A DNA stretch of 64,000 nucleotides, taken from an uncultured Poribacteria bacterium. Lineage in GTDB: Bacteria; Poribacteria; WGA-4E; WGA-3G. Location of the stretch: NCBI GenBank assembly GCA_951813565.1, contig OX638351.1, positions 5,024,001 through 5,088,000 of the forward strand, in the 5' to 3' direction. The translations under genes and the position numbers were made by a program. This document shows positions 22,010 through 47,478 of this stretch, piece by piece. Numbering within the stretch: position 1 is the stretch's first letter; each line of letters begins with the position of its first letter. Below the pieces are notes generated by a model. That model was not told the origin of the DNA and did no database searches. It saw only the letters and a program-made list of their open reading frames with translations.

Positions 22010-22420
22010 AGAGGCGCAATGAATCGCGCGACTACAAACGCACATGTTCACATGTTTTTAGGATGACGCTAATACAAACGGATTGCTGCTATAGTGAACT
22101 TTAGAATTAACAGGACATTTTGAGTTGTCCGAGGGAACTCCGGGGAATGCCAAAAGGCATTCATACCGTTGATTTGGATTCCCGACTATCAGTGAATTTC
22201 ATCGCGATTCGGAGATCGCTCCTACAGAAAATGTGCCTCTTTAATTTCAAGGTTCACCATAATTTATTTTGAACTAAAATCGGGCGGACAAGGTTTCCCT
22301 CCCACAAGAGGAAATCCAGCAATTTTTTCTTAAATTGACACTTATGGGTGGCGCTATTGCTGTACCCAACCTACAAGAACTTGTGGACGGAAACCCACTG
22401 CGTGCGCCTACTACCTTTAA
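22010..22420. repeat. Cluster of REP-like palindromes, a MITE-like element (TIRs ~22090 and ~22260) and an AATCAAC micro-unit (22142-22176)
   Basis: TATAGTGAACTTTAGAATTAA versus TTAATTTCAAGGTTCACCATA; motifs recur at 5576, 36061, 40870 and 40966-41010. Confidence 0.65.
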
Positions 22421-25975: not shown

Positions 25976-26079
25976 CAAAAACACATCTTTCTGTTAATCT
26001 ATACCGAAATGATATATTCCTCATATACGAGAATACTTTATTTATAAAACTAATAGACACCTAAATGTGGAGACATTCC

Positions 26080-27120
26080 ATGTATAAAACTGCGATGTTA
26101 GGGTGTGGTGGTCGCGCCCGTGGGCACGTAGATGCTTATCGCTTCGTCAAACGTGGAAAACTCGCTGCACTCTGCGATATGGACGAAGAGCGACTCAACA
26201 GATTCGGAGATGACTTCGGTATATCTTCGTGTTACACCGACTTGGACGAAATGCTTGAAAAAGAGAAACCTGATGTCCTTCACATCGTCACAAGCCCTGT
26301 CATTCCGAGTAGTGAGGAACGTATTCGTTATCCGTTGATGAAACAGGTTTCAGACCATGGCGTGCCAGCGGCAATTGTTGAAAAACCGGTCGCTATTGAA
26401 GGCGAAGATTGGAAACAGATTGCCGGGTTAGCAGAAGAGACGAAAACGAAATTTGTCGTTAATACACAACTTAACTTCCACCCGAAAAATCTTGAGTTAA
26501 AACAAGATGTCGCAGAAGGACGTATCGGCGAGATCAGGTTTATTGATGCCAGTGTGCGTAGTAGACCTGCCGAGCAGGGAGCACATATGCTACAGTTAGT
26601 GTCCTCGTACATTGACAACTCACGTCCTGTGCGGATTCTTGGACAAATCGCTGGAAGCGAGAATTTGAATTCTGATACGCATCCCGCTCCGCAGCATGCA
26701 GTCGGGCATGTTTTGTATGAGAACGGGCTCCATGTCTCTCTTGCGTTTGGAACAGAGATGGCACAAATGGCATCCGATGATCCGGGTATCTATGGTCATA
26801 AACGTGTTTTTGTTGCTGGGACGAAGGGCTTTGTGCATTGGCGTTTCAGCAGTTGGGAACGCGCAACGTTAGAGGATGGCTATGAGGGAGGCCAGCTGAA
26901 CTATGGAGAGCAAGATGTCGTAGCGCAGGCTAACTTCACTGAAGCCATTTTTGATTGGTTAGACGATGAGAGCAATGTCCATCCGACGCATCTCAAACAA
27001 TCGCTGGCAGAGTTTAACCTCATCTTAGGGATGTACTACAGTGGGATAACAAACAAGATCATTGAACTGCCATTTGTACCTCCCGATGGGTTAATGGACT
27101 CACTCCGGGAAAAGTTGTAA
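26080..27120 (+). CDS. Gfo/Idh/MocA oxidoreductase, tandem paralog 1 of 5
   Basis: LGCGGRA, IVEKP. Confidence 0.9.
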   Translation: MYKTAMLGCGGRARGHVDAYRFVKRGKLAALCDMDEERLNRFGDDFGISSCYTDLDEMLEKEKPDVLHIVTSPVIPSSEERIRYPLMKQVSDHGVPAAIVEKPVAIEGEDWKQIAGLAEETKTKFVVNTQLNFHPKNLELKQDVAEGRIGEIRFIDASVRSRPAEQGAHMLQLVSSYIDNSRPVRILGQIAGSENLNSDTHPAPQHAVGHVLYENGLHVSLAFGTEMAQMASDDPGIYGHKRVFVAGTKGFVHWRFSSWERATLEDGYEGGQLNYGEQDVVAQANFTEAIFDWLDDESNVHPTHLKQSLAEFNLILGMYYSGITNKIIELPFVPPDGLMDSLREKL

Positions 27121-27225
27121 TTTGATATGAATTAGTATTGTGGGTGAGGTCACTACGCCTTCACCCTATGCTATGTTCTGGTACGCTGCTGGCGTACCAT
27201 TGTTAACATTAGAGGAGATAGTTTT

Positions 27226-28263
27226 ATGTATAAAAGTGCGATGTTAGGGTGCGGTGGACGCGCCCGAGGCCATGCAAGTGCCTATCGCTTTGTTAAAGGT
27301 GGTAAACTCGCAGCAATCTGCGATATGAACGAAGAACGTCTCAACGACTTCGGCGATAATTTCGATATTTCTTCTCGCTATACAGATTTAGATGAGATGC
27401 TTGAGAAGGAAAAACCTGACCTGCTTCACATTGTTACGGCTCCTGTGCTACGCGGTTCTAATGAACGAATTCGGTATTCGCTAATGAAGCAAGCATCAGA
27501 CCAGGGCGTGCCAGCAGCGATTGTGGAAAAACCTATTGCTGTTGAAAGCGAAGATTGGAAACAGATTGCAGGGTTAGCAGAAGAAACAAAAACAAAGTTT
27601 GTTGTCAATACACAACTTAACTTCCATCCGAAAAACCTTGAACTAAAGCGAGATGTCGCAGACGGTAAAATAGGTGAGCTAAAGTTCATTGATGCAAGCG
27701 CGCGCAGCACACCAGTAGATCAAGGTCCACACGTACTTCAGTTGGTATCATCCTACATTGATAATTCCAGACCTGTGAGTGTGCTTGGGCAAATCTCAGG
27801 AAGAGAACATCTGGATTCAGCGCAACCTTCACCGATGCATGCTGCAGCACAGGTTATATATGAAAATGGACTTCATGTTTCACTCGCTTTTGGGCAGGGC
27901 ATGGGGACGATGGCATCCGATAATCAAGGTATTTATTGCCACAAGCGTGTCTTTGTTGTTGGAACAGAAGGGTTCGTGCATTGGCGGTTTAGTAGTTGGG
28001 AACGCGCAACGCAAAAAGGTGGCTACGAAGGTGGTCCACTCAACTATGGAGAACAGGATGTTGAAGCACAAGGCAACCTGACAGAGGCTGTATTTGATTG
28101 GCTTGACGATGAAAACAAAGAACATCCGACACATCTCAAACAATCCCTTGCTGAGTTCAATCTCCTTTTAGGCATGTACCATAGTGGTACAACGAATCAA
28201 ATTATCGATCTTCCGTTTGATCCACCAGATGGGTTAATGGATACACTTAGAGAACGGTTATAA
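27226..28263 (+). CDS. Gfo/Idh/MocA oxidoreductase, tandem paralog 2 of 5
   Basis: LGCGGRA, IVEKP, GAGGAG RBS. Confidence 0.9.
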   Translation: MYKSAMLGCGGRARGHASAYRFVKGGKLAAICDMNEERLNDFGDNFDISSRYTDLDEMLEKEKPDLLHIVTAPVLRGSNERIRYSLMKQASDQGVPAAIVEKPIAVESEDWKQIAGLAEETKTKFVVNTQLNFHPKNLELKRDVADGKIGELKFIDASARSTPVDQGPHVLQLVSSYIDNSRPVSVLGQISGREHLDSAQPSPMHAAAQVIYENGLHVSLAFGQGMGTMASDNQGIYCHKRVFVVGTEGFVHWRFSSWERATQKGGYEGGPLNYGEQDVEAQGNLTEAVFDWLDDENKEHPTHLKQSLAEFNLLLGMYHSGTTNQIIDLPFDPPDGLMDTLRERL

Positions 28264-28396
28264 ATCAACTAAAGATTTTCCTTATGTAAAGATTAGCGGT
28301 AGCAGCGAATATCTTTGCCACTATCGCTAATTATTATATACCGTGTGTAGAATATTTATGTTTGCACAGTTCAAAAACGTATAAGGAGCAATTTCC

Positions 28397-29434
28397 ATGT
28401 ATAAAAGTGCATTTTTAGGATGTGGTGGGCGTGCCCGTGCACATGCCAGCGCATACCGTTTTGTTAAAGGCGGCAAAATTGGCGCAATATGTGATATGAA
28501 TGAGGAACTCCTCAATAAGTTCGGTGATGACTTTGATGTTTCTTCCCGCTACACAGATTTAGATGAGATGCTTGAAAAAGAGAAACCTGATCTTCTCCAC
28601 ATCGTCACCGCGCCAGTATTACGCGGTACCAATCAGCGCATCCGATATCCGTTGATGAAGCAGGCCTCTGACCATGGCGTGCCAGCAGCGATTGTAGAAA
28701 AACCGATTGCTGTTGAAAGTGAAGACTGGAAACAGATCGCTGGGTTAGCAGAAGAGACGAAAACAAAGTTTATTGTCAACACACAACTAAACTTTCACCC
28801 CAAAAACCTTGAACTGAAGCGGGATGTGGCTGAGGGTAAAATCGGTGAGATCAAGTTTATTGATGCCAGTGCACGCAGTACACCTGTTGACCAAGCACCG
28901 CATGTATTGCAGTTGGTATCGTCATATATCGATAACTCGCGTCCGGTCAAAGTGTTAGGTCAAATTGCAGGTAGAGAACAGTTAGACTCAGCGCAGCCCT
29001 CTCCGATGCATGCTGCCGGACAGGCAATATATGAAAATGGTCTACACGTTTCACTTGCGTTTGGCACAGGCATGGGGACGTTGGCGTCTGAGAGTGGAGG
29101 CACAGTAACACATAAACGTGTTTTTGTAGTGGGAACAAAAGGTTTTGTGCATTGGCGGTTCAGTAGCTGGGAACGGTCTACACATGAAGGTGGTTACGAG
29201 GGAGGCCCACTCAATTATGGCGAGCAAGATACCCAAGCACAGGGCAACCTTACAGAAGCAGCTTTTGATTGGCTTGACGATGAGAACAAAGAACATCCGA
29301 CACATCTCAAGCAATCCCTTGCAGAATTTAATCTGCTGTTAGGTATTTACTATAGCGGGATAACAAATCAGATTATTGATCTTCCGTTTGACCCACCAGA
29401 TGGGCTAATGAATTCTCTGAAGGACCATCTGTAA
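28397..29434 (+). CDS. Gfo/Idh/MocA oxidoreductase, tandem paralog 3 of 5
   Basis: LGCGGRA, IVEKP, AAGGAG RBS. Confidence 0.9.
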   Translation: MYKSAFLGCGGRARAHASAYRFVKGGKIGAICDMNEELLNKFGDDFDVSSRYTDLDEMLEKEKPDLLHIVTAPVLRGTNQRIRYPLMKQASDHGVPAAIVEKPIAVESEDWKQIAGLAEETKTKFIVNTQLNFHPKNLELKRDVAEGKIGEIKFIDASARSTPVDQAPHVLQLVSSYIDNSRPVKVLGQIAGREQLDSAQPSPMHAAGQAIYENGLHVSLAFGTGMGTLASESGGTVTHKRVFVVGTKGFVHWRFSSWERSTHEGGYEGGPLNYGEQDTQAQGNLTEAAFDWLDDENKEHPTHLKQSLAEFNLLLGIYYSGITNQIIDLPFDPPDGLMNSLKDHL

Positions 29435-29604
29435 ACTAATAAAATAGCGTGGAGGTAGATAAGTCTCTGCCTCCAGAGCTGCCCACACGGGTATGTATGT
29501 TTTCATTAACTAAAGTTCCCTCTTGTAGGAGGGGTTTCTAACCCCGATTTATTATGTGCCATAAGTTCATATCCTACCTGTGTCAAAATTAAAGGAGACA
29601 TTCT

Positions 29605-30642
29605 ATGTATAAAACAGCGATGTTAGGGTGCGGTGGTCGTGCCCGTGCACATGCTGACGCGTATCGCTTTGTTAAAGGTGGCAAACTCGCAGCAATCTGC
29701 GATATGAATGAGGAATTGCTTACCAACTTCGGCAATGATTTCGGTATCTCTTCCCGCTACACAGATTTAGATGAGATGCTTGAAAAAGAGAAACCCGATG
29801 TCCTTCATATCGTCACAGCACCTGTTTTACGCGGGACCAGGGAACGGATTCGGTACCCGTTGATGAAGCAAGCATCAGATCACGGTGTACCAGCAGCGAT
29901 TGTGGAAAAACCGATTGCTGTTGAAAGCGAAGACTGGAAGCAGCTTGCTGGATTAGCAGAAGAGACTAAAACGAAGTTTGTCGTTAACACACAACTGAAT
30001 TTTCATCCCAAAAACTTAGAATTAAAACGAGATGTCGCAGAGGGCAAAATTGGTGAGATAAAGTTTATTGATGCAAGCGCACGCAGCACGCCTGTTGACC
30101 AGGCGCCTCACGTGTTGCAACTTGTCTCTTCCTACATAGATAACTCGCGTCCAGTGCGGGTGCTCGGACAGGTTTCTGGGGCTCAGGATTTGGACTCCAC
30201 TCAGCCCTCCCCTATGCATGCTGCCGCTCAGGCTGTATATGAAAATGGCCTTCACGTCTCTCTTGCGTTCGGGGCAAGTGTAGGGACGCGAGTGCCTATA
30301 GATTCGGGTAATCACACCCACAAACGTGTCTTTGTCGTAGGCACAAAAGGTTTCGTGCATTGGCGGTTCAGCAGCTGGGAACGCGCAACACCAGAAGGTG
30401 GTTACGAAAGCGGTCCACTTGACTATGGAGAGCAAGACGTCGTCGCGCAGGGTAATCTTACCAATGCTGTTTTCGATTGGCTTGACGATGAGAACAATGT
30501 GCATCCGACGCATCTTAAACAATCCCTTGCGGAATTCAATCTCCTCCTCGGTATATACTACAGCGGCGTAACGAATCAGATTATTGACCTCCCGTTTGAA
30601 CCGCCCGATGGCTTGATTGATATCTTGCGAAAAAAACTATAA
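29605..30642 (+). CDS. Gfo/Idh/MocA oxidoreductase, tandem paralog 4 of 5
   Basis: LGCGGRA, IVEKP, AAGGAG RBS. Confidence 0.9.
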   Translation: MYKTAMLGCGGRARAHADAYRFVKGGKLAAICDMNEELLTNFGNDFGISSRYTDLDEMLEKEKPDVLHIVTAPVLRGTRERIRYPLMKQASDHGVPAAIVEKPIAVESEDWKQLAGLAEETKTKFVVNTQLNFHPKNLELKRDVAEGKIGEIKFIDASARSTPVDQAPHVLQLVSSYIDNSRPVRVLGQVSGAQDLDSTQPSPMHAAAQAVYENGLHVSLAFGASVGTRVPIDSGNHTHKRVFVVGTKGFVHWRFSSWERATPEGGYESGPLDYGEQDVVAQGNLTNAVFDWLDDENNVHPTHLKQSLAEFNLLLGIYYSGVTNQIIDLPFEPPDGLIDILRKKL

Positions 30643-30860
30643 AACGGTAACTTATACTATTTCTGAATGATCGTTTTCATTGACAAAAAACCCGTTCGTA
30701 GTCGTGCAATTCATTACGCCTCGGACATTCTTCACTTCAGTGTGAACTCAAAATCTTGTAATGAGATTTTATTCTTCAGAATAGGTGTTACATTGTGCTG
30801 TTAACACTACTTATACCACATTAACTTGATTCATATTTATGGAGCAGTTAGGAAAACGCA

Positions 30861-31284
30861 CCTTATGCGTCAATTTAAGGATATACCCTCTTGTGGGAGC
30901 GAATCAACGCAGCATGCGCGTTTGGCATGCTGCCAAATCAACACCAAATGCGACGAGTGCCATACGCGCGCTCGGCGTTGATTCTGCTTTTTGGCATTTG
31001 TCCAAATCAACGCAGCATGCGCGTCCGGCATGCTGCCAAATCAACACCAAATGCGCTTTTTGGCATTTGTCGGGTTTTCAACCCCGATTTTCTTCTGTAG
31101 GAGCGACCTCCCGGTCGCGAGCTGGAGCTCCCTCCTACAGAATGTCCGAGGCGACAAGTCATGGCGAATACCAAGCGTATTCGCCCAAGTGCGCTTGGCG
31201 TTGATTTGGCAATGAATTGCGCGACTACAAACGCTTTTTTTCTTAAATTGACAGTTATGGAGCGGTTAGGAAACCGCTCCTACC
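30861..31284. repeat. Composite nested repeat: MITE-like TIRs (GTCAATTTAAG / CTTAAATTGAC) enclosing REPs invaded by six AATCAAC-hairpin micro-units
   Basis: Units at 30900-30933, 30934-31002 (with 30952-30985 nested), 31003-31036, 31037-31071 and 31153-31208. Confidence 0.8.
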
Positions 31285-31361
31285 GTCCGGAAAATGCGAT
31301 AAATCCCATTAATTTGGTATTATTTGGGTTCAAATCAGAATACTATAAAGGAGACATTTTT

Positions 31362-32399
31362 ATGTATAAAAGTGCGATGTTAGGGTGTGGTGGTCGTGCC
31401 CGTGCGCATGCCGATGCCTATCGCTTTGTGAAAGGTGGTAAACTCGCAGCAATCTGCGATATGAATGAGGAATTGCTCAACAGATTCGGAGATGACTTCG
31501 GTATCTCTTCACGCTATACAGACTTAGATGAGATGCTTGAGAAAGAGAAACCAGATGTCCTTCATATCGTCACGGCACCAGTGCTACGTGGTTCCAATGA
31601 GCGTATTCGGTATCCGCTAATGAAGCAAGCATCTGATCACGGTGTGCCAGCAGCGATTGTGGAGAAACCGATTGCCGTTGAAAGCGAGGACTGGAAACAG
31701 ATAGCCGGATTGGCAGAAGAGACTAAAACGAAGTTTGTTGTCAACACGCAGCTTAACTTTCATCCACAAAATCTTGAATTGAAACGGGATGTTGCAGAGG
31801 GCAAAATCGGTGAAATAAAGTTTATTGATGCAAGTGCGCGCAGCACACCCGTTGACCAAGGACCGCACGTCCTTCAGTTAGTGTCATCCTATATTGACAA
31901 TTCACGTCCAGTTAGGGTATTAGGACAAATTTCTGGCGGTGCACATTTAGATTCTGCACAGCCATCTCCGCAATACGCCGCAGCACGAGTCCAATACGAG
32001 AACGGACTGCATGTCTCTGTCGCATTTGGAACAGCCATCGCGCCCTCTGCATCCGATGATCAAACTGTTTTCTTCCACAAACGCGTTTTTGTTATCGGCA
32101 CAGATGGATTTGTACATTGGCGATTCAGTAGTTGGGAACGTTCAACTCGAGAGGGTGGCTATGAAGGTGGTCCACTCAGCTATGGTGAACAAGATGTTGA
32201 AGCACAAGGTAATCTCACCAACGCTGTTTTTGACTGGCTTGATGATGAAAACAAAGTACATCCGACTCATCTCAAGCAATCGTTGGCGGAGTTCAATCTG
32301 CTTTTAGGTATATACTATAGCGGCATCACAAACGAGGTAATTGAACTACCGTTTGATCCGCCAGATGGGTTGATGGATATGCTTAGAGAAAGGTTATAA
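31362..32399 (+). CDS. Gfo/Idh/MocA oxidoreductase, tandem paralog 5 of 5
   Basis: Start set at MYKSAM by homology and AAGGAG RBS. Confidence 0.9.
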   Translation: MYKSAMLGCGGRARAHADAYRFVKGGKLAAICDMNEELLNRFGDDFGISSRYTDLDEMLEKEKPDVLHIVTAPVLRGSNERIRYPLMKQASDHGVPAAIVEKPIAVESEDWKQIAGLAEETKTKFVVNTQLNFHPQNLELKRDVAEGKIGEIKFIDASARSTPVDQGPHVLQLVSSYIDNSRPVRVLGQISGGAHLDSAQPSPQYAAARVQYENGLHVSVAFGTAIAPSASDDQTVFFHKRVFVIGTDGFVHWRFSSWERSTREGGYEGGPLSYGEQDVEAQGNLTNAVFDWLDDENKVHPTHLKQSLAEFNLLLGIYYSGITNEVIELPFDPPDGLMDMLRERL

Positions 32400-32467
32400 A
32401 ATTGGTGTGTCCGTAGTTTTATTAAATTGCTTTATAGAGAAACTTATGGTAAATGGAGGAATAATAA

Positions 32468-33202
32468 GTGCCCATTTCAAGAATATTCTGGTTCGTTTCA
32501 GTCCTTATCCTATTTAGCGTTGCAAGTTTCACCACAAATGCTGAATTAGTCGGCTATTGGTCATTTGATAAAGAAGATGGAGTTACTGACCTGACTGGAA
32601 ACGGTCACGATGGCGTTATACACGGAAATCCAGAGTTCGTAGAAGGTAAGATTGGTGAGGCATTAGAATTCAACGGCGCTACTGACTACGTCGCGATCCC
32701 CGATCACAAAGCAATTTCAGAATTGGAAGCATTGTCTATGGCCGCATGGATTCAACCCAAAAAGCTCGGCGCGTGGGTAGCAGTTTTAGAAAAAGGTATC
32801 CATCTAAACTGGAGTTACGGCTTCTTCATTGAACCGGATGGCACGCTCTCGTTTGAGGTTTCTACTGGTCCCGCTAATAATCTGGTCTGCTGTGTTGGCA
32901 ATGTCGCGCTTAAGATTGATCAATGGTATCATATCTTCGGCTCTTATGATGGGAAGTCGGTAAAGGCTTATGTTGACGGTAAGTTGGAAGGCGAAATGGC
33001 GGGTAATGATGCTGTTCACATAACCGAAGGATTACCCTTTACCATCGGCAGCAGAAACGGACAAAACTTCTTTGCTGGTGTTGTTGACGAAGTTGCATTT
33101 TGGGACGAGGCAATCACTGTTGAGGAATCCATGAACCCATCACCTGTCCAACCAAAGGGTAAACTAACAACCACCTGGGGTAAGTTAAAAACTCGGCACT
33201 AA
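32468..33202 (+). CDS. Secreted LamG-like jellyroll protein
   Basis: Signal peptide, LVGYWSFD, ALEFNG, VDEVAFW, C-terminal VQPKGKLTTTWGKLK. Confidence 0.88.
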   Translation: MPISRIFWFVSVLILFSVASFTTNAELVGYWSFDKEDGVTDLTGNGHDGVIHGNPEFVEGKIGEALEFNGATDYVAIPDHKAISELEALSMAAWIQPKKLGAWVAVLEKGIHLNWSYGFFIEPDGTLSFEVSTGPANNLVCCVGNVALKIDQWYHIFGSYDGKSVKAYVDGKLEGEMAGNDAVHITEGLPFTIGSRNGQNFFAGVVDEVAFWDEAITVEESMNPSPVQPKGKLTTTWGKLKTRH

Positions 33203-33207
33203 AAACG

Positions 33208-34059
33208 ATGCAAACCAATTCTGAAAAATTTGCTGAAGATGGCTACTTTGTCGTGGAAGCGGCTCTGAACACGGAGGATTTGGCACCGCTAATTGCTGTT
33301 ATTTCTGACGTTGTTGACAGACGGGCACACGAATTATTCAACGCTGGGACAATCTCAGATGTTTATGAAAACATGCCTTTTGAACGCCGCTGGTCCGCTA
33401 TCCTTCAGGAATGCGGTAGAGAGAATGAGGTATTTGGGTGGCATACACTCGTTTTTAGTGAGGCACTCTTTGATCTAATTACACATCCAAAAGTATTAGA
33501 TGTTGTAGAAACGCTTATAGGTTGTGAGATCCAATTCAACGGTGACTTTTGGGTGCGACCAAAATTGCCCAATGAAAAACTCACGACACTTCCTTGGCAT
33601 CAAGACAGTGCCTATATGCCAGATACAGAAAACGATATACACCTGACAGTGTGGCTGCCCTTAGTAGATGTGCAGACAGAAAACGGTGCGCTGCAATTTT
33701 TGCCCGGAAGCCACACTGCCGGGTTACAAACCTATCACCGTGTTGAAGGTGAGGCGTTCGCCGTCCCAGTACTACCTCCGACGTCATCTCACACCAACAT
33801 AGACACATTAGAAATGAAGAAAGGCGACCTGCTGATTTTTAACAATCTGGTGTTTCACCGTTCTTTGCTGAACCGTAGCGATACCATTCGTTGGTCAGTT
33901 GATTTTCGGTACAGTCGGACAGGCACATCGCTGGATGGACTCTGGCACGAAGCAATTGCATGTCCGGCTCGTGACTGTAACAGCAGGGAGTGTCCAACAT
34001 CATGGAATGCTTGGCATGCGCAATGGGAAGCAAGTCCCCACAAGGAAAAGTTTGTTTAA
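33208..34059 (+). CDS. Phytanoyl-CoA dioxygenase-family Fe(II)/2OG oxygenase
   Basis: PWHQD, VWLPLVD, NGALQFLPGSH, HRS..N.SD.IR. Confidence 0.9.
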   Translation: MQTNSEKFAEDGYFVVEAALNTEDLAPLIAVISDVVDRRAHELFNAGTISDVYENMPFERRWSAILQECGRENEVFGWHTLVFSEALFDLITHPKVLDVVETLIGCEIQFNGDFWVRPKLPNEKLTTLPWHQDSAYMPDTENDIHLTVWLPLVDVQTENGALQFLPGSHTAGLQTYHRVEGEAFAVPVLPPTSSHTNIDTLEMKKGDLLIFNNLVFHRSLLNRSDTIRWSVDFRYSRTGTSLDGLWHEAIACPARDCNSRECPTSWNAWHAQWEASPHKEKFV

Positions 34060-34970
34060 TCTCCTGACTGCGTTGAAAAAGTCTCTCTGCGCCGTAAGTC
34101 TTCAATAGCTGCTTTTCTCATTTCTTGATGACGCGGAGCGCCTGCTACTCCTGGTGCTGCGGCATGCGGCTTAAAGATGTAAATTCTGACCACTTTGTTG
34201 TCAACATCATAAGTAAATAAAATTCCTCTTTTCCAATACCAATGCTTTTTCTCACCATGGATAAGAGGCTTTTCTTCTTCGGCATTTCCAAACTCCTTCT
34301 CTACTTGTTCGAGTGTATTTCCAATACCGTTCCTTCCCCGCGTTTTTGCTTTATTAGGTCTTCTCACGAAAATACTCTCAACAAGACCTATACCGTCAAC
34401 AAAACCGGATAACCCTTTGTCAGGATCCCAATATGAAAAAAAACGATTTACGCCAAGGGGACCATCCGGATCTCCATGAAGATCTCTAACATTTTTAAAC
34501 GGATCCCCTAACTTTATGCCAGCGGCACTCCTGCCAGGTACAATAAGATTTATTTGCGGAGGGTCAGGGTCTGGTACGATCTCTTCTATAGGATCTGGTG
34601 GGACGAATTTCAAGTTAGCAATTTTTTTTACCCTTTTTGTTGATTTGGTCACACCATCGCTCACAATCACCGTCACTGCAACCGACTCAACATCGGGAGG
34701 TGCAGTCCATTTAACGCTCACTCCCGTCGTTGAACTTAGTCTTCCTGCACTCACTGTCCATGTATAAGTCAATGGGTCGCCATCTTCATCATAAGCAAGG
34801 ACCTTGAATTCAAGAATATCTCCAGGGTTGAATTCCGTGGGAACAATAAAAGTGTCAACAGTGGGCGAGTTATTGGCTGGTTCATCACTATCGTCCGAAC
34901 CACAACCAGCAATGTAAAAGCTGATCAGGCATGCCATAACAAGACTTAAAATACGATATTTATTTTTCAT
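34056..34970 (-). CDS. Lipoprotein with PKD/Ig-like domain
   Basis: Lipobox IAGC, DEDGDPLTYTW. Confidence 0.7.
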   Translation of the reverse strand: MKNKYRILSLVMACLISFYIAGCGSDDSDEPANNSPTVDTFIVPTEFNPGDILEFKVLAYDEDGDPLTYTWTVSAGRLSSTTGVSVKWTAPPDVESVAVTVIVSDGVTKSTKRVKKIANLKFVPPDPIEEIVPDPDPPQINLIVPGRSAAGIKLGDPFKNVRDLHGDPDGPLGVNRFFSYWDPDKGLSGFVDGIGLVESIFVRRPNKAKTRGRNGIGNTLEQVEKEFGNAEEEKPLIHGEKKHWYWKRGILFTYDVDNKVVRIYIFKPHAAAPGVAGAPRHQEMRKAAIEDLRRRETFSTQSGD

Positions 34971-34980
34971 TTTTATCTCC

Positions 34981-35958
34981 TTAAAATTCTGTAGTTTCTC
35001 CTGTTTTTAAAACAACATAGCTACGGTAACGTTCCGGGTGTATATCCCCAGATTCAACTGCACTTTGAATAACACAGTCTGACTCTTTGACGTGAGCACA
35101 ATCATTATATCTACATGTACCAAGAAAAGGTTCCATCTCTGGGAAAAAATGTTCCAGATTTTCTGTATCAACACCCCATAACCCGACTTCACGGATGCCG
35201 GGTGTGTCTGCGACTTCGCCACCAATCTCAAGTGAGAACAACTCTACGAGCGTTGTGGTGTGTCTACCTTTTCGTGTTTTTTGACCGACTTCCCCAATTC
35301 GTAATTTTAGGTTTGGTTGAATAGCATTTAGAAGACTTGATTTTCCTACACCGGATGCGCCTACAATCACACTGAATTTATCTCTTAGTGCATCCCGCAG
35401 GGATTCAAGGGTAGTAGGCGTATTTATGCTCGTGTATAATACGTGGTAGCCGAGTTTCTCGTAGACTTCAAAAGTAGATGTAAGTTCCTCACGTTGTGTT
35501 GCATCTATCAAGTCCATTTTATTTAAGCAGATAACAGCTGCCATGTCTCCTGCCTCTGCTAAAATTAGGAAACGATCCAGTGTCCGAAAATTGAGAGGCG
35601 GCATACGCGTTGAGACAACAGCTACTACCTGATCCGCATTGGCGACAATAATCTGCTCAATATCTTCATGCTTTCCCGCGTATTGCCGTGAAAATTTCGT
35701 TTGGCGCGGAAGTATCTCCTCAACGACCCCCTCTTCTAAATCAAGTTGAGTGAAAATAACCTGGTCCCCAACAGCGACTGGGTCAGCGTAAAGTCTTCGT
35801 CCTGTTTCGGAACGCCGTTTCCTTTTTAAGGTGCCGCGTAATGTGCATCGCAGAACAAGTTCACCGTACTGAACATCGTAAAATCCTGTTCGTGCCCGGA
35901 TGACTCTGCCTTGTTCACGGGTAAGAATAAACGCCACCTCCCAATAGATTTTGTGCAA
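34981..35958 (-). CDS. rsgA: Ribosome small subunit-dependent GTPase A (start uncertain)
   Basis: AVGD.V OB fold, NKMD, GASGVGKSS, GRHTTT, DTPG, C-terminal C-x4-C-x-H-x5-C. Confidence 0.95.
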   Translation of the reverse strand: MHKIYWEVAFILTREQGRVIRARTGFYDVQYGELVLRCTLRGTLKRKRRSETGRRLYADPVAVGDQVIFTQLDLEEGVVEEILPRQTKFSRQYAGKHEDIEQIIVANADQVVAVVSTRMPPLNFRTLDRFLILAEAGDMAAVICLNKMDLIDATQREELTSTFEVYEKLGYHVLYTSINTPTTLESLRDALRDKFSVIVGASGVGKSSLLNAIQPNLKLRIGEVGQKTRKGRHTTTLVELFSLEIGGEVADTPGIREVGLWGVDTENLEHFFPEMEPFLGTCRYNDCAHVKESDCVIQSAVESGDIHPERYRSYVVLKTGETTEF

Positions 35959-36060
35959 AATAAAACTTTTTGGATAAGTCGCAACTCACAGTATCCAAAT
36001 GCATTGATTGTATATTATACCATTTCTGAAAAATAACTTCTCATTTTCAAATTATCTGTT

Positions 36061-36167
36061 CGTAGTCGCGCAATTCATTGCCAAATCAACGCCAAGCGCA
36101 CTTGGGCGAATACGCCAAATCAACGGTCCGAATGCCTTTTGGCATTCCCCGGAGACCCGCCCCTACA
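36061..36167. repeat. REP-like palindrome carrying two AATCAAC micro-units (36082-36115, 36116-36150)
   Basis: Shares units with 31153-31208, 22142-22176 and 40909-40943. Confidence 0.75.
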
Positions 36168-36230
36168 ATAGGAGTTGTGCGGATTTCTACAAAAACTTTA
36201 CACACCCAATTGGTATTAGATCGTTGACTT

Positions 36231-36998
36231 CTAAACATACTTCCTCAATGTTTTCAAGGTTGTTTCACTATCTTCGTGAAAATTGTCAAATTTGCACTCA
36301 CAGGAGACACGTCCATCGTAACCTGCTTTTTGGAGTGCGGTAAAGAAGTCTGTAAAATCAAAGTCATCGTTCCCCGGATAAGAGCGTTTTACAGGTTCAG
36401 CGATATGAACATGTGCTAACCATTCTGCAGCATCAACAATGTTTTGCATCGGTTCGTCTTCCTGCCAAACGTGATATAAGTCAGCCAATACCTTAATTCC
36501 TTTTCGGTTGACACGTTTTGCCATCGCCAGTCCGTCAGCAACAGTGCGTAATACGTTCCCTTCTTTCATGCAGATTGGTTCAATGACAATTATAATGCCG
36601 TGTGCTTCTGCATGGTCGGCAGCCATATCAAGAAATTCTGCAATCTGTGCTAATGCCCGTTCCTCTGAATAACCTTCCCCAACGTTCCGAGAACCGCTGC
36701 TGCCATAAACGATAATCTCTCCGCCAATTTCACTGGCTCTGCGGCATGCAGTTTCCACATACCGAGATAAACGTCCAAAATCCACCGCGTCACCGACAAC
36801 GCGCAGGTCTCTGGGGATAAATCCGGCGTACGCCTCAGGTTTTAAGGGCGCTTCTGCCACCTGCTCTCTAATCTTTTGGAATTCGGCTTCATCTGCTTCC
36901 GGCATAAGTGCACTTCGCACCCCTAATTCAATATAGTCGTATCCAACTTCCGCGAGTCTATCAACATTTTCTAAACCGGTACAAATCCCAAATCGCAT
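36231..36998 (-). CDS. Sugar phosphate isomerase/epimerase (AP endonuclease 2 TIM barrel)
   Basis: GYDYIEL, VIEP, ADLYH, HVHIAE, GYDG.VS.E. Confidence 0.88.
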   Translation of the reverse strand: MRFGICTGLENVDRLAEVGYDYIELGVRSALMPEADEAEFQKIREQVAEAPLKPEAYAGFIPRDLRVVGDAVDFGRLSRYVETACRRASEIGGEIIVYGSSGSRNVGEGYSEERALAQIAEFLDMAADHAEAHGIIIVIEPICMKEGNVLRTVADGLAMAKRVNRKGIKVLADLYHVWQEDEPMQNIVDAAEWLAHVHIAEPVKRSYPGNDDFDFTDFFTALQKAGYDGRVSCECKFDNFHEDSETTLKTLRKYV

Positions 36999-37067
36999 GA
37001 AATCGCTCCTTTATAAAGGCATGGTCGGTCCTGTCTATTACCAAAGCACCAAAGCACCAATATACGT

Positions 37068-37415
37068 TTAAATATTAGGGATAAAAAAACGTATTACAGT
37101 TTCAATTATAGAAATTAACACTGCCGCGAAGAGTGTGTTTAAGAACCCGTCAATTTCAAATCCATCAACCAATTTATTGGTAATCCAAAGTAGGAAGGCG
37201 TTGATGACAAAATAGAAGAGTCCCAATGTTAAAATTATAAAAGGAAGTGACAAAAATACCAAAATTCCGGTGAAGAGAAACTTGAAAATCCCATATACAA
37301 GCGCAACGCCCACTGCAGTTGCACACCCTTTAACTCGGACAGCAGGCAAAATATATGTCACTATCAAAACCGAAGCACTCAGGACCAGTAGGTTCAAAAT
37401 CCAATTTATTAGCAT
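37068..37415 (-). CDS. YvlD/Phage_holin_4_2-family membrane protein
   Basis: LPFIILTLGLFYFVINAFLLW..LVDGFEIDGF. Confidence 0.85.
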   Translation of the reverse strand: MLINWILNLLVLSASVLIVTYILPAVRVKGCATAVGVALVYGIFKFLFTGILVFLSLPFIILTLGLFYFVINAFLLWITNKLVDGFEIDGFLNTLFAAVLISIIETVIRFFIPNI

Positions 37416-37504
37416 TTTAAATTCTCCTATACATGTTTGAAAGGAAGTATCTGATAATGTTGGGTCATAAATGCTATTAGATTAAAAGTGCGGTGCTGCA
37501 CGAA

Positions 37505-38308
37505 TCACTTTCCGAAGCGGCGTTTACGATGGCTATAGTCACGCAAAGCACGGAGAAAGTCGATTTTTCGAAACGAGGGCCAATAGGTATCGCAAAAATA
37601 GAATTCTGAATAGACACTCTGCCACAACAAAAAACCAGACAGACGCACTTCGCCACTCGTGCGAATAATCAGTTCTGGGTCAGGCAGATTAGAAGTATAT
37701 AAATATGGCGCGATTTTGTCAACACTCAATTCTTCCGCAATTTGATTAGCATCTTTTCCATCCCGGATTTCTGCTTTTAGATGTCCTCGAAATGCTTCAA
37801 TTATTTCCTCTCGACCGCCATAAGCGACAGCAACATTCAGAATAAACTTGTCATAGTTTTTCGTCGCTTCTTCTGCTTCCCGAATTGCTTCTTGAAGACT
37901 TTGCGGCAGCTGTTCAATTTGTCCCATGGCACGCACTTTAATCTGATTGGCATGCAGCCCTTTAATCGTGACCAATTCACGCATTTTTCTTTCTATCAAT
38001 CCCAAGATTCCTTCAACTTCATCATCTGCGCGTTTGAAGTTATCCAGTGAGAAAATCCATATTGAAAAGATTTCAACACCGAGTTCATCGCACCAATGAA
38101 GAACTTCTTCAAGTTTATCAGCACCTTCATAATGTCCTTTTATTATGTTGTCCAACCCACTGGCTTTGGCGTAGCGGCGGTTTCCATCAAGAATAACACC
38201 TATATGGCGCGGAATATTCCACGTACCTGCTTCCGCTTCTAACCGTTTTTGATACGCGTTGTAAAACCTTCTTTCAACTTGATTTTTTAGGAACTTGAGT
38301 GGATTCAT
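37505..38308 (-). CDS. uppS: cis-Isoprenyl transferase (UppS family)
   Basis: PRHIGVILDGNRR, FS.DNF.R, YGGR.EI, IRTSGE.RLSGFLLWQ. Confidence 0.9.
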   Translation of the reverse strand: MNPLKFLKNQVERRFYNAYQKRLEAEAGTWNIPRHIGVILDGNRRYAKASGLDNIIKGHYEGADKLEEVLHWCDELGVEIFSIWIFSLDNFKRADDEVEGILGLIERKMRELVTIKGLHANQIKVRAMGQIEQLPQSLQEAIREAEEATKNYDKFILNVAVAYGGREEIIEAFRGHLKAEIRDGKDANQIAEELSVDKIAPYLYTSNLPDPELIIRTSGEVRLSGFLLWQSVYSEFYFCDTYWPSFRKIDFLRALRDYSHRKRRFGK

Positions 38309-38560
38309 GTGTTTCCCTTTGTAAAACGACTCCGATTTGCTAATTACCGACTTTTGACTTCGGTTTTCAAATAGGTATATTAAAAAATAGGTCAGTGAAG
38401 ATGCAATACCAATTATGATGTTTTTCAATTATATTTCAATTATACCATGAAAACCTTGTTAAGAAAATAGAAACTAATTTCTAAAACAACAAGGGTGAGA
38501 ATATATTGAAAAATGTCCAATTTCCTCAAATTTTAGTTTTTTCAATTTATAAATTTATAC

Positions 38561-38589
38561 TTGACTTTTTCTGTGGTCTTTTGTATAAT
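38561..38589 (+). promoter_or_regulatory. Sigma70-type promoter TTGACT-N17-TATAAT
   Basis: Near-consensus hexamers upstream of a structured leader and 38767. Confidence 0.7.
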
Positions 38590-38594
38590 ACTTA

Positions 38595-38720
38595 TAACGA
38601 CCAAACAAACGTTTCACATGGGTACCCTTGTTCTAAAATTATATTTTGAACGTTTGGCTTGGTCGCCGGGGGTGCCCCAACTTTTTGCAATAGGGGGCAC
38701 CACAGGCGACGAAGCCGCCA
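38595..38720 (+). promoter_or_regulatory. Structured 5' leader with two alternative stems
   Basis: 38620-38630 can pair with 38667-38677; alternatively a long hairpin forms over 38657-38715. Confidence 0.55.
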
Positions 38721-38766
38721 CACAATATGCAAGTGTGGCAAATGATAATTTTATAGGAGGTTATTA

Positions 38767-39450
38767 ATGATACGTAACATCCTACCTTACAAATGGATTA
38801 TAGGGGGGATAGTCCTTCTGATAATCATCGCCAGTGCATGTTACTTATGGTACCAACATGACACGGCACCTTATAGGCAAGAAGCAGCTGATGCCGAACA
38901 ATTGCTACGCCAATCGGAGATAGAAAAATCCGAGAAAAGCAAGGTAGCAGAACAGGCATCCGATGCACCTGCGGAAAGCAACACGCCAACCGCAGAGAAA
39001 CCTATAACTAACGAAGTAACCAACGACGATGAAGTCGCAACCGCAGAGAAACCGCAGATGTCCCCCTTCGGACTTGGTCCTTTGCCTGAAATACCGAAAG
39101 AATGGGACGCGCCATATCTGTGGAAAAACTGCGACGATATTGAAGATGAATTACTGACACGCGTGATCATAAAAATGCATCATGATGGCATACGCGATAA
39201 GTATAGTAGTGTCGGTATAGATCACGCCACAGGACTTGTCATACCAGTTGAATATGGCACTGTTCTTGTTTATTATGAAACCGATGAAAACGGTGAGCAA
39301 AGAATATGGAGCGTAAGCGGACATCCTGCTGACGTTCCACATGGCACTATTTACACACGTGCCAGTGAAATTCCTTCACATCTAAAGATTGTCACCGAAG
39401 AAGAGATAGCGATTGACCCTTATGAATATTTGGGTCTACAAAAACCGTAG
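38767..39450 (+). CDS. Hypothetical membrane-anchored protein
   Basis: AGGAGG RBS, N-terminal TM helix, low-complexity linker, SPFGLGP.PEIP motif. Confidence 0.75.
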   Translation: MIRNILPYKWIIGGIVLLIIIASACYLWYQHDTAPYRQEAADAEQLLRQSEIEKSEKSKVAEQASDAPAESNTPTAEKPITNEVTNDDEVATAEKPQMSPFGLGPLPEIPKEWDAPYLWKNCDDIEDELLTRVIIKMHHDGIRDKYSSVGIDHATGLVIPVEYGTVLVYYETDENGEQRIWSVSGHPADVPHGTIYTRASEIPSHLKIVTEEEIAIDPYEYLGLQKP

Positions 39451-39464
39451 GAGGTTTTATTATC

Positions 39465-40268
39465 ATGAAAAAAGTAGTAGTTTTCTTAACAATAGCGATT
39501 TTCATTGGCATGATCGCCTATGTCGCATATTCTAATTCTAATCGTCGTTCATCCTGGGTCTATTTAGACATCAATTCAACGTATGGTTCTGCTTATAATC
39601 CACCAACTTTTAGAGCTAAAGGATGTTTCGGCTCCGATAGCGAGGGTCCGTTGTATAGCTCAGGGGATTCATCTGTCAGCTATACGGATGATGGATACGA
39701 CCGCACTACCGGGCTTAACAATACCGAAGCATTTGCTTATCCAGCAGGAGCTGAGGGGGCACTCAATGAAATATTGGATGCCGGTCATTACTTTGAGAAT
39801 AATCTGGTATTAGAGGATGCTGAGGGTACTCTAACTGATGTTGTAGGTTTTTTGGCTAATGAGGATTTTAAAATATATAGAGCAAAGACCTATAATAGGA
39901 AATTTGCAGTGAGTGCTGACGCCTATGTTTCTTGTTGGACAGATAATGCTAACTACAAAACAGAGTATAACCTATATGCCCAAGTGCCAGCAGGTTTTTA
40001 ATACCCAAATTATCGGAAGATAGGGCCTATAACGAAATATGGTTCATTCTCTCGTTCTACCTCACGCAGCGGCGATAAAGATGGGTGGGATCATGAAATC
40101 AGCACGAACCCGAATGGGCAAGCTTCTGCCTCTGGAACGAATCCATCAGATGGGACGACGCATAACACATCTGCTTTCACACCCACGCCGGGCAGTGCGA
40201 ATGAATTAACTATCAACTGTGGTTTCTGTGATGACTCTGGGTGTGATGTCTGTAATCCGCACAGATAA
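39465..40268 (+). pseudogene. Secreted hypothetical protein with in-frame TAA at 39999-40001 and Cys-rich C-terminus
   Basis: Same frame stays open for 88 more codons to CGFCDDSGCDVCNPHR*, and a terminator follows. Confidence 0.7.
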
Positions 40269-40291
40269 TCACATAAACAAACCTATCAACC

Positions 40292-40330
40292 AATAGGCAG
40301 GTATCCGTTTTGGATATCTGCCTATTTCTT
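40292..40330 (+). terminator. Rho-independent terminator
   Basis: AATAGGCAGGTATCC-GTTTT-GGATATCTGCCTATT followed by a T-rich tract. Confidence 0.75.
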
Positions 40331-40868
40331 ATTTTCACATACCTGTTATAAAAATGCTCAGATTCCCCACAGGCGCGTTTTATGATACCTTATAAACTCC
40401 ACCGGCATACAATACGATTTTTGCATTGACGTATTTTGGCAACCTACTGTCAAGTTAACCTGAGATATCGAAGTTAAAAAGCTGCGGAATACCAAACGTG
40501 TATTTTAACGTGAGTTTGATAAATCCCGTAGGGAATCAACACCTTATTTTCCTCGTTAACATCAAAAACCATATCTTCTATATCGGAAATGTTTACAACT
40601 TTCAATTGATCTTGATAGTGTTAACTTAAAGTTATTCACACTAAATATTAGGCTTAAAGTGTATCAGATATTAGGTAAAAAATCAACATTAACCACAGAT
40701 TATCTCAACACAAAATTCAGAACTGAAATATAGTCAGTTTTACAAAAAATCTTGAATTTCGGGCAGGCATGCCGTATACTATTTATATGAGGGATGTGCA
40801 TAAATATTGGCGCATCAACACAGACAGGGACAGACGCCAGGTGCCGCTTGATTTATAGAAATGCGTTT

Positions 40869-41010
40869 GTAGTCGCGCAATTCATTGCCAAATCAACGCA
40901 GCATGCGCCAAATCAACGGTATGAATGCCTTATGGCATTCCCCGTGTGGCATGCTGCGCCTCTTTGAACTTGTGGACGGAGACCCACGGCGTGTGCGGAC
41001 TACCTTTAAG
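40869..41010. repeat. REP invaded by nested AATCAAC micro-units (40889-40957 containing 40909-40943), then a ~45-bp repeat also found at 22377-22420
   Basis: Removing the units restores GTAGTCGCGCAATTCATTGCGCCTCT (intact copy at 57729). Confidence 0.8.
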
Positions 41011-41122
41011 CGCATATTTAACATCGGAATTATTTATGCACACCCCTCATTTATATTGACTAACAGATATCCTGAAGGAAATTGACATACTCCCAAGCTA
41101 AAGCATGGGGATTCTTCTATCA

Positions 41123-42280: not shown

Positions 42281-42294
42281 TACCTATATCCTTC

Positions 42295-42402
42295 GCATTA
42301 CAATGCCAACTTCAAATGGTGCGGTGGCACTCTCAAGCGAGAGGTGAAGTCCACCGCTGTAATGCTGAATATAGTATACCAAAAACGCAAGGAAAAATCA
42401 AC
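42295..42402 (-). promoter_or_regulatory. tnpB promoter (TTGATT-N17-TATACT) and structured 5' leader
   Basis: Stems GCATTACA/TGTAATGC, GCGGTGG/CCACCGC and CTCTC/GAGAG close just before the GAAGGA RBS. Confidence 0.6.
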
Positions 42403-42475
42403 AAAAAAATGGAGACGTTAGCGGTGTCTACATCCCCGTGCTAAAGCAACGGGGTTTTGACACCGAAGATTGATA

Positions 42476-45244: not shown

Positions 45245-45258
45245 TTGTTTGAGAAACA

Positions 45259-45472
45259 CCATAGGCATCAATTAAAGGAAATATCCCTTGTAGGAGGGGT
45301 TTTCAACCCCGATTTTAGCACGCCCCTTTCGTACCTCTGGTGCTTTGATTTTGGGTGATATGTATTCTATACACCTTTCACACCGCTGGTGCTGATATAA
45401 GTTTGCTGAAGCCTCGGAGAGGCGACAGGTATATCAAATGATAAACGTTATCCACTAAATTGACGCCTATGG
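45259..45472. mobile_element. MITE-like element with TIR CCATAGGC(A/G)TCAATT and internal REP
   Basis: CCATAGGCATCAATT versus AATTGACGCCTATGG; related ends at ~22330-22348 and 30861/31260. Confidence 0.55.
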
Positions 45473-45515
45473 GTATTGATAGAGAAACACATAAGCATCT
45501 TACATTTGAGGAAAA

Positions 45516-46742: not shown

Positions 46743-46764
46743 TAATTTCCAATTGCAACCCTTT

Positions 46765-46788: not shown

Positions 46789-46793
46789 TATTT

Positions 46794-47258
46794 TCACCAT
46801 CCCATCTCGTATTTACACCGCCAATACGGATACTCCCGGGCAGTTTTTACCAACCCTTTTCTCACAGGATTCAAGTAACAATAGCGGATCATCTTATTCA
46901 ATGCCGTCTCATCCCGAACCGCCCAATCCCTATACTCGGCTTGCCAGAACCTCCCACACCGTGATAGATGTTTATTGATTTCACGTGCTGTAAACAGTTT
47001 CAGTGAGTGCAAAACCTTTGGAAGTGTTTGTCCGATCCCAAGTTCAATTATGCTATGGACATGGTCGGGCATAATCATGATACAAATCCACCGAATCCGG
47101 TGTTTCGTTTCTAACCAATCAAATGTTTCAAAGATAATTGAGGCGACGTTGTTGTTTGCAAGAAGCGGCAGCCGCTGGTGTGTATTGATTATAATATGGT
47201 AATAGGCACCAGATATTGAAGTCCGGCCTTTACGCAAGTCATGATTTGAAAATTTCAT
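46794..47258 (-). CDS. REP-associated tyrosine transposase (RAYT, Y1 HUH)
   Basis: YHIIINT, IMPDHVH (HUH), FWQ..Y.D..VR, Y..LNPVRKGLV, YPYW. Confidence 0.9.
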   Translation of the reverse strand: MKFSNHDLRKGRTSISGAYYHIIINTHQRLPLLANNNVASIIFETFDWLETKHRIRWICIMIMPDHVHSIIELGIGQTLPKVLHSLKLFTAREINKHLSRCGRFWQAEYRDWAVRDETALNKMIRYCYLNPVRKGLVKTAREYPYWRCKYEMGW

Positions 47259-47478
47259 GATATTTTCCTCCATCTGCTTGGCGAGGTTAGGAAACCTCGC
47301 CAGCAGCGTGTTATACCAAATTATTCTAAATCATTGGGGCGGGGTCCCACTGAATGCCACAAAGACATTCACAGTGTTGATTTGATGCCCACCCGTGTTT
47401 TCGGTAGTGAAATAATAAAAATCTCGTTAATTTTGGTATGATACGAAGGCCTCATGGAAATTGCATAAACCCTAATTA

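Follow-up and report, generated by a model that had tools for sequence, protein, structure and literature searches.

The window analysed here, which is the whole stretch of 64,000 nucleotides introduced above, lies in the genome (G000) of a Poribacteria sponge symbiont, assembled as one contig of 5,426,982 bases with 43% G+C. From 26069 to 32399, the window carries tandem paralogous genes for GFO/IDH/MocA oxidoreductases, where three open reading frames of 345 aa lie at 27226-30642, one of 412 aa lies at 31161-32399, and a further paralogous segment is located upstream, from 26069. The copy number of these genes varies among the genomes G000, G006, G002, and G012. A tnpB-only IS605-family element with a 385-aa open reading frame, matching OrfB_IS605 and a Cas12f1-like TNB domain, occupies 41082-42478 on the minus strand; its lineage numbers 5 genomic copies, which are 91-96% identical. 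A RAYT-like Y1 gene (Y1_Tnp, 51 bits) lies at 46794..47273, also on the minus strand, flanked by an inverted pair of GGCGAGGTTTCCTAACCTCGCC, and is given here as context only.

Among these features are short elements composed of the tag AATCAAC and a hairpin. Their observation is confirmed, since all 12 of the units first reported in the initial annotation, which had counted at least that number, were located at their positions in the window. Each unit consists of two variable bases, the tag, and a hairpin, with a total length of 34-36 nt. The larger size of 56 nt, which had been included in the range of 34-56 bp, applies only to type D, which is a composite and the exception in length. The hosts of the units are GTAG-type REP palindromes, which are split, or the loops of other units; the reported insertion into REPs and into one another is thus borne out by the nested units described below. 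The heptamer AATCAAC occurs 34 times in the window compared to 16.1 ± 4.3 in dinucleotide shuffles, where none of 100 shuffles reached 34.

The most complex site, at 30890-31086, is a single GTAG-type REP1 (CTTGTGGGAG + GGGTTTTCAACCCCG) interrupted by the head-to-tail array A1-B1(C)-A2-B2, which separates the 5' part CTTGTGGGAG (30890..30899, plus strand) from the REP1 hairpin GGGTTTTCAACCCCG (31072..31086, plus). Unit A1 (30900..30933, plus) is formed by CG, AATCAAC, and a 9-bp stem GCAGCATGC with a 7-nt loop, and its single-stranded fold has an energy of −10.5 kcal/mol (z −2.45). Unit B1 (30934..31002, plus) is formed by CA, AATCAAC, and the stem ACCAAATGC, with unit C nested where the loop begins. 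Unit C (30952..30985, minus), which reads AG, AATCAAC, and GCCGAGCGC.., has a degenerate stem. Unit A2 follows at 31003..31036 (plus), and the array ends with the 35-nt unit B2 (31037..31071, plus), the uninterrupted counterpart of B1. A 121-aa open frame at 30839-31204 crosses the array; it consists of repeats and is almost certainly no gene.

The remaining units are dispersed over the window. Unit D (31153..31208, minus), in which the tag is followed by an outer imperfect stem around the inner hairpin GGCGAATAC..GTATTCGCC, is flanked by the two halves of a REP2 (reverse complement of GTAGTCGCGCAATTCATTGC|GCCTCGGACATTC) at 31140-31152 and 31209-31229. A truncated D (36082..36115, plus) is located 3' of a REP2 ending ..CAATTCATTGC, and is followed by a unit E of class II (36116..36150, plus), composed of CA, AATCAAC, a GGTCC spacer, GAATGCC/GGCATTC, and CCC, whose right side abuts the 3' half of a REP4. 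Unit A3 (40889..40957, plus) splits a REP2 (ATTGC|..|GCCTCT) and has a second E (40909..40943, plus; z −3.8) nested in its loop, between GCGC and GTGTG. A third E (22142..22176, minus) lies in the loop of a REP3-type palindrome (GGGAACTCC|..|GATTCCCGAC), and unit F (47349..47384, minus), a class II variant of 36 nt, lies in a REP4 loop (GGGGCGGGGTCCC|..|ATGCCCACCC). When the single strands were folded and compared to shuffled sequences, types A, D, and E folded clearly better (z −2.5 to −3.8; D −3.0), and B and F folded weakly (F, z −1.1). The expected hairpin of type C was not formed (z = +1.1), so that the claim of a hairpin in each unit holds for A, D, and E and fails for C.

The genome-wide search for the tag with a hairpin yielded 586 units in two main classes. 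AATCAAC occurs in 2358 copies in G000, and CCAAATCAAC in 562 copies compared to approximately 10 expected; a hairpin lies behind 670 of the 2358 tags, of which 412 belong to class I and 174 to class II. In class I, a 9-bp stem follows directly after the tag and encloses a loop of 7-8 nt. Class II has a 4-nt spacer, an 8-bp stem, a 4-5-nt loop, and a CC(CC) tail. Among the 374 class I units with a 9-bp stem, compensatory changes occur at 5 of the 9 stem positions, where pairs 1, 3, 4, 5, and 8 each show two or three Watson-Crick forms: pair 3 is CG in 197, AT in 107, and TA in 58 units, pair 4 is GC in 195 and AT in 176, and pair 5 is AT in 263 and CG in 107. The hairpin finder tolerated at most one mismatch, which inflates the percentage of paired positions, while the double changes are real. 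The tag is invariant across the class I units while the stems vary, and the class I loop, GC(G/T)T(A/T/G)TG, is found in a single orientation, with the reverse in about 5 of the 374. The results support discrete modules of 34-36 nt in which the tag is constant and the hairpin varies with covarying pairs.

In class I, all hairpins of types A, B, and GCTGAATGC have the tag on one side. Among the class II hairpins, 110 of 224 have no tag of their own, and most of these lie directly behind another class II hairpin. The tag stutters in steps of 8 nt (CCAAATCAAGAAATCAAC, up to 3 copies) before class II hairpins, for example at genome positions 134082 and 697929, and 37 of the 174 class II units have AGA just before them. 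Sixteen units fall in open frames of at least 250 aa; nearly all of these are in the first few codons or are chance look-alikes, and no clean insertion was found among them.

The relation of the units to their hosts was determined from filled and empty sites. In the flank-joining test, the two variable bases, the tag, and the hairpin were cut out, the 10+10 flanking bases were joined, and the resulting 20-mer was sought elsewhere in the genome. The 20-mer exists elsewhere for 189 of 598 units, the number fell to 0-7 when one base fewer was removed, and the counts sit on the diagonals for unit lengths of the hairpin plus 9, 10, and 11 bases. With flanks of 45+45 nt, a paralogous site that reaches across the junction, with at least 18 nt on either side, was found for 406 of the 586 units. 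Among these paralogues, 135 show no difference in the 16 columns around the junction and 177 differ by substitutions only; the empty copy has 1-7 extra bases in 85 cases and missing bases in 8, and one case is complex. When at least 100 nt were aligned on each side, a non-self paralogue was found for 167 of the 586 units, of which 60 are ungapped at the junction. In the cleanest pair, paralogous segments of approximately 270 columns differ by 2 mismatches and otherwise only by one 35-nt unit: REP1 is intact near 4,272,000, and at 471,162 the unit lies between CTTGTGGGAG and GGGTTTTC.

The empty versions of the sites therefore exist, and they join without duplication, in agreement with the reported lack of a target site duplication; neither target duplication nor terminal inverted repeats were found at the units in the window and at the paralogue junctions. 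The REP sequences restored by deletion occur exactly elsewhere in the genome, where TGTGGGAG+GGGTTTTCAACCCCG is found 30 times, CAATTCATTGC+GCCTCT 85 times, and ATTGC+GCCTCGGACATTCT 9 times. The claim that deletion restores intact REPs holds genome-wide in this exact form, whereas the intact look-alikes within the window, on which it had been based, each differ by one base. Type A with the loop GCGTGTG and no nested E has 13 copies in the genome, and the intact REP3-type host of the E at 22142 has 68.

Some junctions are less clean. In the REP4 loops, GGGnCAC and GGrACC are separated by a single A in all of the 31 empty copies, and by 35 nt without this A in all of the 19 filled copies. In the REP3-type tags, the filled form is GTG[unit]GGGAG and the empty form is GTAGGAG. 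These REP4 and REP3 junctions may be single events inherited by composites; they are consequently no proof that every insertion overwrites a base. The loss of 1-3 host bases at some junctions indicates that the joining either is imprecise about the site it uses or has a repair step after it.

The insertion sites are concentrated at particular places of the host hairpins. In REP1, the first site lies between the tag GTGGGAG and the stem, and the second is found at the other foot, on the opposite strand (TAAATC|..|GGGGTTGAAAACCCC). At both sites, the hairpin of the unit adjoins the G-run of the host stem, and the units lie 5' of the G-run on the strand read. The class II sites are mainly loops, namely GCGC|GT(A/G)TGG of class I units, GGGnCAC|GGGACC of REP4, and AATC|GGAG of the REP3 type. 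The base 3' of a class I unit is G in approximately 70% of cases and otherwise the C of the next unit. On the 5' side, the initial annotation had stated that insertions mostly follow a C, which describes 218 of the 412 class I units and misses the 154 that follow a G.

The units are not confined to a single assembly. The pattern AATCAACGCNNNATGCGC was used for the search across genomes, with the reversed pattern as a control, and it gave 400 matches in G000; four further species of the genus have 225, 159, 140, and 131. Seventeen more genomes of the genus have 4-56 copies, and G001 and G033 have none. Besides G000, 21 of the 23 genus genomes searched thus contain the family, the copy number over the 23 ranging from 0 to 225. 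Type A, of which G000 has 120 copies, has 12-18 in three relatives. In a second genus, 5 of 8 genomes have 1-8 copies; in a third genus, neither of 2 genomes has any; and the other three families of the order gave one single match in 47 genomes. The reversed pattern had 0 matches in every genome searched. A search of sequencing runs gave matches in 13 runs from 7 studies, with no RNA run among those listed, and Logan contigs of four runs from four studies match units at high depth. The Logan contigs of these 4 runs over 30300-47700 end at every repeat cluster, and none bridges a unit with its unique flanks. An artefact of the library or the assembly, which the initial annotation had named as a concern, is ruled out by the 21 of 23 independent genus assemblies that carry units together with the contigs in four runs of four studies.

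Several readings of the units as parts of something larger were also rejected. Among the ends of repeats of at least 400 bp, 16 of 1343 lie within 40 nt of a unit compared to 11.9 at random, and the ends of the resident IS605-family elements have no tag; the units are thus not the ends of larger insertion sequences. One group of AATCAAC hairpins associated with AATCAACGAAAAACC (10 copies) resembled the terminus of a longer element and was taken as internal to a MITE variant, because at least 3 copies adjoin matches to a MITE of approximately 165 nt. This MITE has at least 60 copies at 72-100% identity, in the region of genome position 101067 and about 60 other places, and one of its variants has its own AATCAAC with a small hairpin. 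Carriage by viruses was considered as well: of 74 matches of AATCAACGCNNNATGCGC in viral contigs, none has a hairpin, and they were read as chance. Rfam gave no family match, the best scores of 20.3 and 18.7 bits being far below the gathering scores, and a limited search of the literature on Poribacteria repeats and on RAYT/REPIN systems found no account of AATCAAC units.

The candidates for a protein that moves the units were examined among the Y1 genes. The 10 Y1_Tnp matches of G000 comprise IS200-like TnpA genes, two genes of the 3098 type, and three RAYT-like genes, which are 48-59% identical to one another and one of which is broken by a TAG. RAYT-a is flanked by its own inverted REP pair, and RAYT-c by REP3 arrays. 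RAYT-b (genome 3549548-3550003) has an in-frame TAG, is flanked by REP1 and REP3, and may be a pseudogene. The two genes of the third kind (Y1_3098 at genome 3098010-3098354 and Y1_1368 at 1368721-1368969; 62% identical, one broken by a TAG) are flanked by other hairpins, which are repeats of their own such as GCCCCAGCGGGGC and CGCTCCGCTGGAGCG, the motif CGCTCCGCTGGAGCG being found 47 times in the genome. The IS605 family is represented in G000 by two lineages, one with 4 full and approximately 22 tnpB-only copies and the other with 5 tnpB-only copies, the element at 41082-42478 of the window among them; the lineage with full copies also leaves right-end fragments of about 120 nt. The IS605-family ends (TTAGCACTCCCC.. 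and ..GGGTACCTATGAC) are without the tag in the four full copies that were read, which represent three of the Y1 places. None of the 10 Y1 genes of G000 is framed by tag units in the manner of a REPtron, as judged from the flanks read for seven, and the sole association of a unit with a Y1 gene is one unit inside the REP3 upstream of RAYT-c. In the Poribacteria, AATCAACR occurs in the 600-nt flanks of only 3 of 37 loci with a relative of RAYT-a.

The phyletic distribution of these genes was compared with that of the units as presence and absence among kin that are not independent, a comparison that does not amount to a statistical test. With a threshold of E ≤ 1e-10, 25 of 40 genus genomes (G000 among them) have RAYT-like genes. 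At this threshold, G041, with 159 units, has no RAYT-like gene; G059, with 131 units, has only a RAYT-like fragment with two stops. The unit-free genomes G001 and G033 have no RAYT-like gene, and nine genomes with 4-159 units also have none. In G032, G010, and G062, with 17-19 units, no Y1_Tnp match was found at E ≤ 1e-5. IS200-like TnpA is present in all five genomes with at least 131 units, and also in the unit-free G033 and in G053 (30 matches, 0 units); the ends of the insertion sequences of IS200-like TnpA are unrelated to the units.

The orientation of the tag relative to replication was determined as a further indicator. The GC skew is nearly flat and gives no origin. The cumulative gene-strand bias traces a clean V whose extremes lie at 1.28 and 3.99 Mb and define two arms of 2.7 Mb, and the origin and terminus were taken from these extremes only. 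The tag strand is leading in 203 and lagging in 209 class I units, and leading in 81 and lagging in 93 class II units, so that no replication-strand bias was found on these arms. The bias of fork-coupled single-strand transposition was thus not seen, in a test that is weak because the IS605-family control, at 21:15, was uninformative. The REP2 sequence GTAGTCGCGCAATTCAT does show a preference, 126:72 in favour of the leading strand as inferred here, which REP1, REP3, REP4, and the units do not share.

The AATCAAC-hairpin unit is likely to be a very small mobile element. The fixed unpaired tag, the oriented loop, and the covarying stem require a reader of sequence plus fold, and the exact junctions without duplication require a nuclease-ligase of the HUH kind or of the kind of a site-specific recombinase. 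Passages of a study of E. coli TnpA-REP describe binding of this enzyme to the tag and hairpin together, low-specificity cleavage (C|T) at both feet of an inverted REP and in linkers, and strand transfer in vitro that can build tandem arrays (PMC3333891). The units at the feet of REP1 and in loops, together with the arrays, resemble the action of the E. coli RAYT, and movement by an HUH nuclease in trans is kept as the best reading for this reason. According to this reading, to which we assign a probability of about 0.38, the units are non-autonomous mobile DNA moved as folded single strands by an HUH (Y1, RAYT-like) nuclease acting in trans. A protein would read the single-stranded tag together with the hairpin. 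The enzyme would cut host hairpins in or close to their feet and loops, in nearly all cases immediately 5' of a G, and the module would then be joined into the cut host. In terms of the sequences, this would mean cuts 5' of NNAATCAAC and behind the hairpin on its 3' side, and transfer of the strand into GTGGGAG|GGGTTTTC. This explanation is weakened by the phyletic and strand results. The HUH/Y1 mechanism as it was originally proposed, with a Y1 transposase flanked by the tag among its expectations, was not supported: no such gene was found in G000, RAYT does not track the copy number, and the replication-strand bias is absent.

The leading alternative, which we consider rather unlikely, requires no dedicated transposase. 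At a host hairpin, synthesis from a nick or a stalled 3' end would jump to a unit located elsewhere as template and then jump back, and the tag and hairpin would be copied using the replication or repair enzymes of the host. The bases at the start of the units bear on this mechanism. Class I units that follow a G start with TG, CG, or GG in place of CA, and the first two bases track the host base, with CA after C in 202 of 207 cases, TG after G in 95 of 107, and CG after G in 29 of 37, while each hairpin type is found with CA as well as with TG. This dependence is not predicted by simple cut-and-paste, and it is what a microhomology of one base would give. The ragged junctions (85 of the 406 empty paralogues with 1-7 extra bases, and the A lost in 19 of 19 filled REP4 loops), the tandem arrays and tag stutter such as CCAAATCAAGAAATCAAGAAATCAAC, the persistence of units in genomes with no Y1 match, and the lack of a strand bias are likewise consistent with copying. 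However, many junctions are exact to the base, microhomology of more than one base is not evident, and the invariant 7-nt unpaired tag, the oriented loop, and the compensatory stem changes point to a specific reader.

A different dedicated enzyme, such as a tyrosine recombinase acting on folded single strands in the manner of integron integrases at attC sites or a nuclease/ligase of another kind, would agree with the finding that no Y1 gene fits, and a tag plus hairpin without duplication demands only a reader of the folded strand. The attC half-site RYYYAAC of integrons resembles AATCAAC, and an interpretation of the tag as such a half-site was dropped because most units have one tag only. 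The single tag of most units, as opposed to the inverted pair of an attC site, also speaks against the tyrosine recombinase, since GTTGATT follows only 14 of the 412 class I units, and we regard an enzyme of this sort as improbable.

In a further alternative, the units would be passive parts of mosaic REP- or BIME-like composites that spread whole and are reshuffled by slippage or by recombination between tags. Much of the copy number is indeed due to composites spreading whole rather than to separate insertions. The 412 class I units lie in 113 flank contexts, the largest of which hold 44, 41, and 40 units, and the 174 class II units lie in 47. Type C, with 12 copies in the genome, is nested in the loop of another unit in 11, and of the 26 copies of type D, the 8 examined all follow AATTCATTGC and share this site in REP2. 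The block at 36018-36207, which is a MITE-like frame with a REP2, the truncated D, an E, and half a REP4, varies between genomes as one piece: it is missing from the orthologous place in G006, where TTGTATATT adjoins a close variant of AGATCGTTGA, and the same junction is uninterrupted in G012. Conversely, G006 carries a REP3 doublet with units at both of its outer ends, which the orthologous place in G000 lacks; the flanks there are 91-95% identical.

The MITE-like frame, with the ends TTATACCATTTCTGAA.. and ..AATTTGGTATAA, carries REP2 and other modules and is also found at 30655-30700, 47300-47330, and 57680-57730 of the window. In G012, the intergenic region matching the array of the window is entirely repeat-free. 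Intact REP1 is rare in the relatives checked, with 0-11 copies. In G006, an apparently empty REP1 lies upstream of the orthologue of the gene that starts at 31363; it was set aside as a positional analogue only, because its flanks do not align.

Passive spread does not readily account for the 72 class I and 33 class II contexts that are singletons, for the same types being found at REP feet, in a REP stem arm, and in the loops of three host families, or for the near-identical paralogous pair that differs by exactly one unit. As an explanation of the units as a whole, it is therefore judged unlikely. The weakest explanation, that the hairpins are selected functional motifs such as RNA stabilisers or terminators whose spread is secondary, would fit the intergenic location, by crude gene calls, of 549 of the 586 units, given that 82% of the genome is coding, and the tag strand being antisense in 200 and sense in 146 co-directional intergenic gaps (counts that are non-independent owing to the arrays), but is made very improbable by a copy number of 0 to 400 among species of one genus, by the nesting of units in one another, and by the lack of an Rfam match.

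The units share with REPs and REPINs the form of an imperfect palindrome of 20-40 nt, extragenic and in many copies. Tagged REPs, REPINs, and BIMEs, as described in parts of the literature, have an unpaired tag at the palindrome end, are clustered and mosaic, and vary in copy number between close species (PMC3733652, PMC3116915, PMC3333891). The units differ in that the tag is AATCAAC in all of them and not GTAG or CGTC, that they flank no cognate RAYT gene as a REPtron does, that inverted doublets of the REPIN kind are rare (an inverted tag directly follows 14 of the 412 class I units), and that they sit inside other REPs and each other. They fail three of the four defining REP/REPIN features that were tested. 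CGTC REPs are also described, in a portion of PMC3733652, as lacking a dedicated transposase.

In relation to the known mobile elements, the units resemble IS200/IS605 elements in having neither terminal inverted repeats nor target duplication, and differ from them in having one hairpin and no left and right end, the resident IS605-family ends being unrelated. They differ from PATEs because they lack the left and right ends of a resident IS, and from MITEs because they lack terminal inverted repeats and a target site duplication. Read on the other strand, a unit resembles the right end of an IS608-type element, namely a hairpin with a cut site approximately 9 nt 3' of its foot (in part after a passage of PMC3333891).

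The closest precedents are the cyanobacterial small dispersed repeats (SDRs) and the tagged REPs. The SDRs of the Nostocaceae, from the work of Elhai in 2008, are reportedly 21-27 nt long and nested, and SDR4-6 are said to share a predicted hairpin. The description of the units as among the smallest mobile DNAs is therefore fair at 34-36 nt, except that the SDRs, already in print, are reportedly smaller. Compared by description only, both are very short repeats with exact insertion points, nested in repeats and without duplication. The units differ from SDRs in their occurrence in Poribacteria and not in cyanobacteria, in their greater length (34-36 nt), in their GTAG-type REP hosts, and in the fixed unpaired 7-nt tag 5' of the hairpin, a comparison that again uses the SDRs by description only. 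The units thus behave as is reported for SDRs, while belonging to a different phylum and having an architecture of their own. As stated in a portion of PMC4390886, the cyanobacterial SDR5 is inserted precisely between nucleotides 3 and 4 of HIP1, and SDRs are mentioned in a passage of PMC3116915.

A precise, self-nesting unit of 34 nt inside non-autonomous repeats is near the lower size limit for mobile DNA. The units break short-read assemblies at every locus, and they create spurious open frames such as that at 30839-31204. How the cyanobacterial SDRs and the CGTC REPs move is still unsettled, and since dozens of closed or nearly closed genomes of this genus carry from 0 to 400 copies, the mover could be identifiable by comparison and in vitro. 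The AATCAAC hairpins can speculatively be regarded as a third class of tagged REPs, hyperparasites on GTAG REPs that would borrow the Y1 cuts at REP feet and loops and would represent a minimal single-strand transposon of 34 nt, which is a doubtful reading at present. If it is true, the complete long-read genomes of approximately 40 species would make it practicable to study how repeats this small move, a question that has stood for 18 years.
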